Positions 14,351 to 39,700 of a DNA stretch of 64,000 nt are shown piece after piece. The position numbers were made by a program, and so were the translations under genes. The notes under the pieces were generated by a model. That model saw only the letters and a program-made list of their open reading frames with translations, did not search any database and was not told the origin of the DNA. Numbering within the stretch: the stretch's first letter is position 1; each line of letters starts with the position of its first letter. The stretch spans positions 11,098,001 through 11,162,000 of the forward strand of contig CM022668.1 of NCBI GenBank assembly GCA_012295275.1, in the 5' to 3' direction. Origin of the DNA: Chrysomallon squamiferum (Eukaryota > Animalia > Mollusca).

Positions 14351-17300
14351 GTAAGATTTCGTTTTCCTTTTATTTCTATTTAAACAACAGAAAGATTAGT
14401 TGCTGTTTTGTGTTTTGGTATTTTTTTTTTTTTTTTTTTTTTTTTTTTTTTTTTTAGAAATGGTAAATGATTTTGTTTATTAGTTTAATTTAAACACGGT
14501 AATATCTTATTTTTCTTGCTGTTTGTCTTTAAACAGAATAAACTATTTATTTGTTTTTGTATTTTGTTTAGAAAACTGTTGATTTGTTCTCATATTTTCT
14601 TTACACAGTAAAACATTCTTTATTTCTTGTTTTTATACTCTGTGTCTTTCCAGCTATACCTGGTTGTGAGTACATCGTTATTCCAGGCACCACTGGATAT
14701 GACTTCTATCGAACAATTACAGAGTACCATACACGTGAAGAATGTAGAATGTTCTGTGACACACAAAACGGATACAATAATAAACCGTGTACTGCAGTAG
14801 AACATGAAGACGACAATTGTTATTTGTATTCTTCCGTTTTCCCTTATGGCTATTACTCTGGTTCAACAATGTACATAAAATCGTGCGAAGACGGTAAGAA
14901 AGTCTGTTGTTAAATATTCATTCAAGATTAGATGGTAATTTATGTCTTCTATTGATTTTTTTTTTTCTGTTAAGAACAAAAGTTGCAAATATAAAATATA
15001 CTAACAATCTGTATTTGTTTGTTGTTCTAACCAGTTATGCTTGACATGTTAATCAGATGAGAGAACCGGACGTAGAATAGTTTATATATGATTACAAACA
15101 TTTATCTCGAGCAATTGTAATCAGTTATAATGAAAATGATTTGCATAACTGTTTTTATTTTTTTTGTTTTCTTTCTTCTTCATCTTTCACCGATTATTAT
15201 TTAGCACTCCTTGTGTTTATTTTAATAAATCTATCTTTATTTTAGATATTTTAGAAATAAAATAAAAAAGATTTCTCTGTGTAGGCAAGGAACATTATTT
15301 TTCGTAATGAAAATTTGTTTTGTTTTCTTTAAAGAGTTTTTATTATCTGTCACAGGTACATGTGGATTACCATGTGCAAACGGCGCCACTGTAAACTTTG
15401 ATGACTGTACTTGTTCTTGTTTGAATAACTGGGAAGGCATTCTCTGTGGTAAGTTTATTCTTATTTGGTAAAATATTTGAATGAATGATAACTGTTCAGT
15501 GTAAAACTTAAAATAAACAAATAAATTCAGCATGCAGCGCAAATTGAAAATTAGGAAAAACTGATAAACTATTTGTAAACATTCAGAAGGTGACTAATGG
15601 TAAAGAAGAATCTGGTAAGACTCCATTAAAAACTTTCCTGAACATCATAACTACATAGGATCACAAAAAGTAAGGAATGATAATATACCTTGCTATAACA
15701 TTTCAATGCTTATTAGCCAAGATGAAAACGTATTCCTTTCTAATGATATATCAGGTGCGTGTGGATTTCCGTCTGAAAAGGGTGTAATTCTAATATGCAG
15801 GACTGTATTTGTTCTTGTATGGAAGGCGGGAAGGCATTTCCTTTCGTACGTTTATTTATTTCTTTATTTCTTTTTTATATATTTATATATTTATTTATTT
15901 ATTCATTTATTTATTTATTTATTATTTAAATTCAGATGTATGCAACGAGGACTGTTTAAATGGCGGAGTGTTAAACTCAGATAGCTGTACCTGTTCTTGT
16001 TTGAACAACTGGGAAGGAGATTTCTGTAGTAAGTGTATTTTATAATTAATTCGTATGTTAATATGCAAAGAAGAAAATTTAAATCAGCAATTTCTCTTTT
16101 TCGTTTTATTTTATTTTATCTTTTTTTTTCTTAATAATTTTCAGTTATTTATTTATTTATTTTATTTTTTATTTTATTTTATTTTATTTATTATTTAAAT
16201 TCAGATGTATGCAGCAAGGGCTGTTTAAATGGCGGAGTGTTAAACTCAGATAGCTGTACCTGTTCTTGTTTGAACAACTGGGAAGGAGATTTCTGTAGTA
16301 AGTATATTAATTTATGTCATAATACGGCTTTATTCTCACGTCAGTTCCTATAACTTATGCCTTTTCAGTTGTATTTATTTATTTATTTATTATTTAAATT
16401 CAGATGTATGCAACGAGGACTGTTTAAATGGCGCAGTTTTAAACTCAGATAGCTGTACCTGTTCTTGTTTGAACAGCTGGGAAGGAGATTTCTGTAGTAA
16501 GTATATTAATTCATGTCATAATACGGCTTTATTTTCACATCAACTACTGTGATTTATGCCTTTTAAGTTTTATTTATTTATTTATTTGTATTGTGTCTCT
16601 CTTATTTAGAATATTTATCTGAAACTAAAGTTTATTTCATGTTCGCTGTCACCGTGACAGGTTACCAGTCAGTTATGTTATTATTTCTCTCTGGTTTTAG
16701 CCATGTATCATGTTTTGGATTGGCCTCATAAGCCGTAACTTCACGACAGAAGGATGATTGCAACACTCATGTATTTTTCAGAACCAGACTTTTGTTGTTT
16801 AACTTCAGTGACTCTCTTTCAGTTATTAATCATATTAATAAGCATTTTTTAGTTTTCGTAGATATCTGATGCTGTATGAATAATAAATAAACATTGATTG
16901 AATTCTATTCTTACAGATGAATGCAATCTAGTCTGCCAACATGGCGGTTTGTTGAATACGATATCTTGCACATGTACGTGCAAAGAAAACTACTACGGGG
17001 ATAAATGTGAGCTAAGTAAGTACTTTTTTACATACACACACATAAAAACACAGACACACACACACAAACAGACACACATACACAAACATACATTCTGAAA
17101 TAGACATGCTTGTTACTCCTGTACATATTCTTTCATACAAATAAATTTGATAAGAAGAAGAAGAAAAAGAAGAAGAAGAAGAAGAAGAAGAAGAAGAAGA
17201 AGAAGAAGAAGAAGAAGAAGTAAAAGAAGAAGAAGAAGAAAAGGAAAGAAATAATCCAGAAAACAAGGAAATAAATAAAGAAATAACAGTTTCTTCTCCA

Positions 17301-36758: not shown

Positions 36759-39700
36759 ATGAATCAGAAGGACATTGTATTAAACATTTTCTTGGTGGGA
36801 TGTTTCCTTCTGGTGTCGTCTGCGATGGAAAGAGTCTCCAGCAGTAAGATTTCATTTTCCTTTTATTTCTATTTAAACAGCAGAAAGATTAGTTGCTGTT
36901 GTTTGGGGGGAGGGTGTTTTTTTTTTTTTTTTTTTTTTTTTTCATTCTTTTAGAAATGGTAAATGATTTTGTTTATTAGTTTTATTTAAACACAGTAAGA
37001 TCTTATTTTTCTTGCTGTTTGTCTTTAAGCAGAATAAACTATTTATTTGTTTTAGTATTTTGTTTAGAAAAATGTAAAGCATTGTTGATTTGTTCTCATA
37101 TTTTCTTTACACAGTAAAACATTGTTTATTTCCTTGTTTTTATACTCTGTGTCTTTCCAGCTATACCTGGTTGTGAGTACATTGTTATCCCAGGCATATA
37201 TGGAGATGACTTCTATCTAGAACTTGAAGATTCCTATACACCTGAAGAGTGTAGAATGTTGTGTGACACACAAAACGGATATAATAATAAACCCTGTACT
37301 GCAGTAGAACATGTTCACGACTATTGTTATTTGTATTCTTCCGTTTTCCTTTTCAGCTATTACTCTGGTTCAACAATGTACATAAAATCGTGCGAAGACG
37401 GTAAGAAAATGTGTTGTTAAATATTCATTCAAGATTAGATGGTAATTTATGTCTTCTATTGATTTTTTTTTTTCTGAACAAAAGTTGCAAAAGTGTTACA
37501 AAATTATAAAATATACTAACAATCTGTATTTGTTTGTTGTTCTAACCAGTTATGCTTGACATGTTAATCAGATGAGAGAACCAGACGTAGAATAGTTTAT
37601 ATATGATTACAAACATTTTATCTCGAGCAATTGTAATCAGTTATCATTAATACGATTTGCATAACTGTTTTTATTTTTTTTGTTTTCTTTCTTCTTCATC
37701 TTTCTCCGATTATTATTTAGCACTCGTTGTGTTTATTTTAATAAATCTATCTTTATTTTAAATATTTTAGAAATAAAATAAAAAAGATTTCTCTGTGTAG
37801 GCAAGGAACATTATTTTTCCTAATGAAAATTTGTTTTGTTTTCTTTAAAGAGTTTTTATTATCTGTCACAGGTACATGTGGATTACCATGTGCAAACGGC
37901 GCCACTGTAAACTTTGATGACTGTACTTGTTCTTGTTTGAATAACTGGGAAGGCATTCTCTGTGGTAAGTTTATTCTTATTTGGTAAAATATTTGAATGA
38001 ATGATAACTGTTCAGTGTAAAACTTAAAATAAACAAATAAATTCAGCATGCAGCGCAAATTGAAAATTAGGAAAAATTGATAAACTATTTGTAAACATTC
38101 AGAAGGTGACTAATGGTAAAGAAGAATCTGGTAAGACTCCATTAAAAACTTTTTGGGATGTCCTGAACATCATAACTACATAGGATCACAAAAAGTAAGG
38201 AATGATAATATACCTTGCTATAACATTTCAATGCTTATTAGCCAAGATGAAAACGTATTCCTTTCTAATGATATATCAGGTGCGTGTGGATTTCCGTCTG
38301 AAAAGGGTGTAATTTTAGTATGCAGGACTGTATTTGTTCTTGTATGGAAGGCGGGAAGGCATTTCCTTTCGTACGTTTATTTATTTCTTTATTTCTTTTT
38401 TAATTATTTATTTATTTATTTATTTATTTATATATTTATTTATTTATTTATTATTTAAATTCAGATGTATGCAGCAAGGGCTGTTTAAATGGCGGAGTGT
38501 TAAACTCAGATAGCTGTACCTGTTCTTGTTTGAACAACTGGGAAGGAGATTTCTGTAGTAAGTATATTAATTTATGTCATAATACGGCTTTATTCTCACG
38601 TCAGTTCCTATAACTTATGCCTTTTCAGTTGTATTTATTTATTTATTTATTATTTAAATTCAGATGTATGCAACGAGGACTGTTTAAATGGCGCAGTTTT
38701 AAACTCAGATAGCTGTACCTGTTCTTGTTTGAACAGCTGGGAAGGAGATTTCTGTAGTAAGTATATTAATTCATGTCATAATACGGCTTTATTTTCACAT
38801 CAACTACTGTGATTTATGCCTTTTAAGTTTTATTTATTTATTTATTTGTATTGTGTCTCTCTTATTTAGAATATTTATCTGAAACTAAAGTTTATTTCAT
38901 GTTCGTTGTCACCGTGACAGGTTACCAGTCAGTTATGTTATTATTTCTCTCTGGTTTTAGCCATGTATCATGTTTTGGATTGGCCCCATAAGCCGTAACT
39001 TCACGACAGAAGGATGATTGCAACACTCATGTATTTTTCAGAACCAGACTTTTGTTGTTTAACTTCAGTGACTCTCTTTCAGTTATTAATCATATTAATA
39101 AGCATTTTTTAGTTTTCGTAGATATCTGATGCTGTATGAATAATAAATAAACATTGATTGAATTCTATTCTTACAGATGAATGCAATCTAGTCTGCCAAC
39201 ATGGCGGTTTGTTGAATACGATATCTTGCACATGTACGTGCAAAGAAGACTACTACGGGGATAAATGTGAGCTAAGTAAGTACTTTTTTACAAACACACA
39301 CATAAAAACACAGACACACACACACACAAACAGACACACATACACAAACATACATTCTGAAATAGACATGCTTGTTACTCCTGTACATATTCTTTCATAC
39401 AAATAAATTTGATAAGAAGAAGAAGAAAAAGAAGAAGAAGAAGAAGAAGAAGAAGAAGAAGAAGAAGAAGAAGAAGAAGAAGAAGAAGAAGAAGAAGAAG
39501 TAAACGAAGAAGAAGAAGAAAAGGAAAGAAATAATCCAGAAAACAAGGAAATAAATAAAGAAATAACAGTTTCTTCTCCATTTTGCTAGATTTGTTAACA
39601 TTTTAGCTTATTACTTTGGATTTGATCAGACATGACATTGCTTTCATTTGTGATTTCACACGAACATTTTCCAGATTGCCATGATGACGAAATGACCATA

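Follow-up and report, generated by a model that had tools for sequence, protein, structure and literature searches.

Divergence peaks in the PAN exon alone in a tandem PAN-EGF gene family of Chrysomallon squamiferum

A stretch of 64,000 nucleotides (nt) from the mollusc Chrysomallon squamiferum (assembly GCA_012295275.1, contig CM022668.1, positions 11,098,001 to 11,162,000 of the forward strand; hereafter the window, in whose own numbering all positions are given) contains one gene in five copies, A, B, C, D and E, the last of which is a 3' half. The gene encodes a predicted secreted protein in which a PAN domain is followed by EGF-like repeats and two small cysteine modules. The genuine signal in this family is a peak of divergence confined to the PAN exon, unlike the identity seen between the downstream stalks of A and B. 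The explanation that we favour, with modest confidence, is that selection for ligand binding diversified the PAN loops of these tandem genes and that gene conversion or unequal crossover homogenised their stalk and tail.

Results

The PAN exons of A (14654-14893, plus strand; the frame of the codon numbering starts at 14656) and B (37161-37400) differ at 29 of 240 nt, with 18 non-synonymous codons, six of them by double substitutions, and five synonymous codons. The signal-peptide exons differ at 5 of 85 nt. Downstream, the three shared EGF-like exons show 0 differences in 93 nt each and the last EGF-like exon shows 1 in 99; the first cysteine module has two substitutions and a 1-nt deletion in B, and the second has 0 differences in 134 nt. 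These counts had been given in a first-pass annotation of the sequence and were recovered exactly. Mismatches between A and B reach 18 per 100 nt inside the PAN exon, with 0-5 in the adjoining intron sequence. In the five older pairs among copies A-D, divergence was 19.7-27.6% in PAN, 15.2-16.6% in intron 2 and 6.5-9.7% in the first EGF-like exon (EGF1). The comparison with flanking introns proposed in that annotation thus placed PAN higher in 6 of 6 pairs.

Between A and C there are 53 differences in 239 nt of PAN, 5 in 85 of the signal exon, 4 in 99 of the last EGF-like exon and 4 in 134 of the last module. The low divergence of EGF1 may also reflect homogenisation, since the estimates of omega, the ratio of non-synonymous (dN) to synonymous (dS) substitution rates, are inconsistent for this exon: 1.3-1.5 with the transition/transversion ratio (kappa) at its bound, and 0.8 by an intron-clock estimate. 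Divergence between copies A and C is about 6% in the region of the late exons (16591-17905 versus 57843-59329) but 16% in intron 2, which suggests that the 3' part of C underwent an older homogenisation too.

The identity of A and B beyond the PAN exon extends over a tract from about 15300 to 17901 in A and from 37816 to 40181 in B. Within it, the exons show 3 differences in 622 nt plus one indel and the introns 11 in 1619 nt (exon versus intron, P = 0.77), while outside it there are 163 differences in 2484 nt upstream (P = 2e-24 versus the tract) and 98 in 3025 nt downstream. Introns that differ by only 0.7% are beyond the reach of selection on the protein; therefore, we infer that the 3' identity arose through a recent conversion or unequal-crossover tract. 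Conservation of the downstream exons by selection was ruled out, as the introns are equally identical. The constant stalk described at first pass is real as far as the near-identity of the 3' exons goes; for the same reason, it is almost wholly a matter of homogenisation. Relative to a fair upstream baseline of 5.3-6.6%, the A/B PAN exon is about twice as divergent (P = 0.003 per nucleotide), and its five silent codons show no excess (P = 0.42).

The replacement differences are clustered. An unsupervised search with three windows of 17, 4 and 8 codons landed on codons 11-27 (14686-14736 in A), 51-54 (14806-14817) and 61-68 (14836-14859), exactly the three patches marked earlier. These 29 of 79 codons hold 70% of the replacement differences (P = 0.003-0.016 against a neutral-plus-invariant null, simulated with the same window search in four set-ups of 1000 runs each). 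Patch 2 reads HEDDN, HVHDY, YYNGW and YYCGW in A, B, C and D, and patch 3 reads VFPYGYYSGS, VFLFSYYSGS, AYPFRYDSAS and FYPFSCSHGS. The patch sequences of the four copies and the invariant motifs IPGCE, TQNGYNNKPCTAVE and CYLYSS agree with those reported before, those of C and D being readable only across frameshifts. In the structure model described below, predicted loops contain 22 of the 29 patch residues and 14 of the 50 scaffold residues, and aromatic residues account for 8-10 of 28-29 positions in the patches compared with 5-6 of 49-50 in the scaffold. Patches 1 and 3 presumably are the two loops that bear extra strands, and would lie together. Such short extra strands on two loops are a feature of the PAN fold (PMC3532174).

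To gauge selection, 490 gap-free intron columns served as a neutral clock. Relative to this clock the patches changed 3.7-fold (range 2.5-3.8-fold) at non-synonymous sites and 0.85-fold at synonymous sites, an omega of 4.4 (4.0-4.9 with three copies). In the scaffold the corresponding rates were 0.58-fold and, for silent changes, 2.2-2.9-fold, an omega of 0.2. Clock-based rates of the patches are biased because the patches were picked afterwards, and simulations that include the window search were therefore made. They gave P = 0.002-0.016 for the proportion of non-synonymous differences in the patches (pN, 0.388) and P = 0.001-0.026 for the exon-wide ratio of pN to its synonymous counterpart (pN/pS, 1.64); the pN/pS within the patches, 2.97 against about 1.0-1.1 under the null, was matched by at most 1 in 1000 simulations. 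Under a null with double hits the patch statistics had P values of 0.016, 0.012 and 0.026 and 0 of 1000 matches. Private changes, as replacement to silent, numbered 10:2 in A, 3:1 in B, 7:6 in C and 13:8 in D, so that a large part of the signal comes from lineage A. Selection against conversions that would wipe out differences in PAN may account for the high silent rate of the scaffold. CpG mutation could contribute to this excess at no more than the 5 of 12 silent-only scaffold codons that lie at CpG. We consider selection on the PAN patches moderately supported by these sequence comparisons.

A number of observations weigh against such selection. Our simulations allow for the position of the patches and not for window number, window length or recombination. 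The exon-wide PAN omega is 0.80-0.85 with four copies, a value drawn towards 1 by the two of four PAN exons that are broken, and between A and B the PAN dN of 0.129 and dS of 0.148 give P = 0.65. Site-model tests of the kind proposed at first pass, run in our own implementation on four sequences with the breaks masked, were not significant (P = 0.05-0.26): M2a versus M1a gave P = 0.26 and 0.15, and M8 versus M8a gave 0.10 and 0.052. Allowing double-base mutations improved the null (P = 0.012), and M2a versus M1a then gave P = 0.93, which removes the site-model signal. Of the codons that differ between A and B, 8 of 17 overlap with those that differ in C/D, an overlap no greater than under the null (P = 0.06 by Fisher's test and 0.66 by simulation). 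Counted as events, the A/B excess in PAN is reduced, to 20 in 240 nt versus 97 in 2017 nt upstream (P = 0.029), and multi-base blocks of 2-4 bases make up 5 of these 20 events versus 8 of the 97 (P = 0.046). Frames are broken in three of four copies (B, C and D). In the single RNA run among the public data (X7) no exon joint was found; its lone contig at the locus, 14200-14406, is identical to the window and runs unspliced through the donor of the signal exon, a cover so thin that it is no evidence of silence.

Part of this evidence would suit a neutral history, in which the loops are unconstrained, multi-base mutations and short conversions from other paralogues cluster the changes, the long conversion tract starts just past PAN by chance and the family is decaying. 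In addition to the site tests, the excess of multi-base blocks, the broken copies and the CpG codons, four PAN sites group the copies contrary to the main tree. At 37307-37316, a three-base block of B in patch 2 finishes a perfect 10-nt palindrome that is absent in A, as a templated (template-switch) mutation would. Such a history accounts poorly for patches whose replacements outrun the introns while their silent changes stay at or below the intron rate, for patch statistics that hold under the double-hit null, for PAN standing above intron in every pair, and for six invariant cysteines in a scaffold of low omega. We regard it as unlikely. The earlier suggestion of aromatic loops on a disulfide scaffold, resembling a binding repertoire, retains the loops, the aromatic residues, the six fixed cysteines, a patch rate above that of introns and the additional PAN variants of the public DNA runs; the exon-wide omega, the non-significant site-model tests and the frame breaks weaken it.

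Copy A, the sole intact copy, encodes 346 amino acids arranged as signal peptide, a PAN domain of 79 residues, five EGF-like repeats and two five-cysteine modules, with 47 cysteines in all. Its only hydrophobic stretch is residues 1-26, there is no transmembrane segment, and the products of the family are predicted to be secreted. According to structure modelling the first domain is a PAN/apple fold, with a sheet of five strands and one helix. Its cysteines C4, C30, C34, C45, C55 and C77 are unchanged in A-D and have the apple spacing; in PAN/apple domains the cysteines pair 1-6, 2-5 and 3-4. Pfam PF00024 matched PAN A at E = 0.0014 (18.8 bits, under the cut-off of 21.4) and left B unmatched, and the ESM Atlas listed PAN clusters at 0.92-0.95 for this domain. 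A model built on a 7-row alignment of window pieces (predicted local distance difference test, pLDDT, 69; predicted template modelling score, pTM, 0.56) returned top Foldseek rows that were all PAN, at E = 0.02 or weaker and template modelling scores of 0.64-0.67. It matched the plasminogen PAN domain with Z = 8.3 and a root mean square deviation of 2.4 over 72 residues, and HGF and leech antiplatelet protein with Z = 7.0-7.3. The single-sequence model of PAN B (pTM 0.44) had no meaningful structural match.

The EGF-like repeats have six cysteines per about 30 residues, each repeat on its own exon, and their EGF-clan matches in Pfam are weak (E = 0.03-0.9, under the cut-offs). The ShK (ShKT) domain has six cysteines and three disulfides. 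Each tail module has five cysteines with a spacing that is merely ShK-like; the modules were unmatched in Pfam up to E = 10 and module 1 gave nothing usable in the ESM Atlas, the queries being short. ShK is thus a resemblance only. The two modules (17395-17901) total ten cysteines, and the odd pair might bond between them. Homologue searches, all weak in sensitivity, confirmed 0 of 3 candidates for PAN A among longer proteins and 0 of 3 for an alignment among proteins of near length, and returned no candidate for the last module. One metagenome match (1 of 194 stretches) consisted of 14 residues in a locus of 56% GC and was attributed to chance, and single PDB sequence rows at E = 0.2 and 0.97 were dismissed.

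The window is AT-rich (GC 22-36% per 2 kb) with abundant microsatellites and one assembly gap, a run of 200 N at 45543-45742. Copy A (14266-17901, plus strand) has nine exons with GT-AG borders: the signal-peptide exon (14266-14350), PAN, five EGF-like exons (15356-15448, 15936-16028, 16205-16297, 16404-16496 and 16917-17015) and the two cysteine modules (17395-17505 and 17768-17901), with a decayed EGF exon near 15760-15847. Its spliceosomal introns and the assignment of one domain to each exon are in keeping with an animal gene. Copy B (36759-40181, plus strand; signal 36759-36843) has four EGF-like exons, one fewer than A. Its deletion lies within an A-run of the first cysteine module (39675-39784) and alters the tail; the signal, PAN and EGF parts stay in frame. 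Copy C (53839-59325, plus strand) has a signal exon (53839-53923), a PAN exon of 239 nt (54752-54990) that is frameshifted in the window, EGF-like exons and a 5'-truncated first cysteine module (58873-58951). Copy D (about 2518-5728, minus strand; PAN 5489-5728, EGF1 4909-5001) is a pseudogene: it lacks both the signal exon and the PAN acceptor, its PAN exon carries two frameshifts, and a later EGF has a stop. Copy E (45743-47960, plus strand) is the 3' half of a D-like gene, 3.2% from D; it starts at the assembly gap and its PAN exon is absent from the assembly. E lies within a 3.5-kb inverted copy (45743-49265 versus 1219-4701, 3.2% apart) that begins at the gap and is either an inverted duplication or a retained haplotig.

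An isolated EGF-like exon followed by a tail-like piece lies 3' of both A and C (21688-22005 and 62784-63060), and more decayed EGF or tail pieces occur near 9795, 12319, 19493, 34865, 41853, 51644-51708 and 60678. A more GC-rich repeated element accompanies each duplication unit (22476-23341, 48381-49267, 1183-2092, 63385-64000, 10258-10923 and 31787-32414) and is possibly a decayed mobile element.

Seven of ten public sequencing runs, from three studies, contain part of the locus. Runs X1, X2 and X3, which come from two studies, contain D-like contigs that share the insertion and the loss of the acceptor; this marks D as a true pseudogene. C-like contigs of run X2 lack the PAN frameshift, which is therefore private to the assembled copy or an assembly error. 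These data bear on whether A and B could be alleles or mis-assembled haplotigs and the breaks sequencing errors. The homopolymer setting of the B break, the intact C-like contigs and the start of E at the gap, so close to D, would fit. However, A and B stand on one gap-free stretch with 5-6.6% upstream divergence and unequal EGF counts, run X2 has both A-like and B-identical sequence, X1 has up to 13 contigs per PAN position, and the lesions of D recur across runs. We hold this possibility to be very improbable; even if A and B were allelic, the PAN peak would persist, as balanced alleles.

Each run has 21-45 contigs on the B PAN exon, as many as 13 of them overlapping at a single position. 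In four public DNA runs, codons 22 and 24 show all four bases at their second position. Among the best 40 of 99 rows of B PAN variants, 33 fall in the patches; only six of the 40 letters do not already occur in A, C or D, and four of these lie in patches. With only six new letters among those rows, the runs indicate a family with further variants and not an independent test of the patches. Their use as independent support was dropped, most letters already being present in A, C and D. Among the best 40 of 214 rows for copy A, 19 variants lie in the 240-nt PAN exon, 16 in the 765 nt of introns 1 and 2, and 2 in EGF1.

Discussion

The history that we favour would run as follows. Copies are born and lost in a tandem cluster (birth and death), and gene conversion or unequal crossover homogenises the EGF stalk, the tail and the introns. 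Selection on the PAN loops would favour new replacements for binding different extracellular ligands and would remove conversions that wipe out the PAN differences. Proteins or carbohydrates serve as ligands of PAN modules (PMC5297725, PMC3532174, PMC7191736), and the aromatic loops would be the part that binds ligand. Our guess for the ligand, the weakest step, is non-self surfaces such as microbial glycans or proteins, which would make the product a soluble pattern-recognition or adhesion protein. The fullest version of this idea, a germline repertoire of soluble recognition proteins with a variable PAN head whose three antibody-like aromatic loops read microbes or symbionts, a constant EGF stalk and a PAN exon shielded by selection, is in our estimate doubtful.

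Several known systems share parts of this pattern. Among PAN/apple proteins (the N domains of plasminogen and HGF, the apples of factor XI and prekallikrein, leech antiplatelet protein and the Sarcocystis lectin SML-2), the six-cysteine fold is alike, at Z = 6-8.3 and 10-19% identity, and so would be its use as a secreted, ligand-binding module (PMC7191736, PMC5297725). Unlike these, the family has a single PAN mounted on an EGF stalk that is followed by two five-cysteine modules; its copies lie in tandem and vary in their loops. Opsin duplicates under gene conversion, for which a divergence-peak model has been put forward (PMC3924837), share the exon-confined peak, the near-identical flanking introns and the tandem copies; there, few fixed sites in two genes are involved, whereas here replacements are numerous, affect four copies or more, and are joined by further variants. 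The sea urchin Sp185/333 genes (PMC3091723) likewise form a tandem cluster amid microsatellites, with flank duplication, conversion, pseudogenes and predicted secretion. Their domain is unrelated. In apicomplexan AMA1 (PMC2323298; fold match Z = 4.7-5.0), diversifying selection acts on polymorphic loops of a PAN scaffold, as may happen here. AMA1, encoded at one locus, is an antigen of the parasite membrane that escapes antibodies; the present proteins are multicopy and predicted to be secreted. Features found here, namely a multigene cluster with conversion and a variable putative binding region, are those of diversified defence families. FREPs and VCBPs are such families in invertebrates.

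The same evolution could serve another job, with PAN loops chasing a prey, host or mate target in a venom, saliva or gamete-surface protein. Much as seen here, the signal exon of conotoxin genes (PMC3862624) is conserved and a single exon, with its cysteine frame fixed, shows elevated dN as well as dS; the PAN fold closely matches that of leech antiplatelet protein (PMC7191736), and the cysteine spacing of the tail is ShK-like. On the other hand, the protein is a 346-residue multidomain molecule with a variable PAN head and a conserved small cysteine-rich tail, unlike conotoxins, and neither Pfam nor the Atlas matched its five-cysteine modules to ShK; these modules are conserved rather than variable. 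The only RNA run bears the label metatranscriptomic, which faintly hints that the animal was studied together with its microbes. We rate such a job as improbable; as a guess from the sequence, non-self recognition is the role we favour, with a venom, saliva or gamete role as the main alternative.

No description of an animal PAN-headed variable family or of this architecture was found in the literature, searched mostly through titles and abstract openings and including few subscription papers. The genes thus represent a real and apparently undescribed PAN-EGF family that follows a known pattern, a variable binding exon and a homogenised stalk, with its function inferred. Were the neutral reading true, the locus would warn against seeing a variable-constant design in what conversion tracts and multi-base mutations can produce. 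The A/B pair is a clean natural example of an exon resisting gene conversion. Since the PAN variants are disulfide domains of 79 residues, ligand screens are directly feasible. If both selection and binding are confirmed, PAN would join the immunoglobulin (Ig), C1q, fibrinogen and lectin folds as a recognition scaffold diversified by animals.

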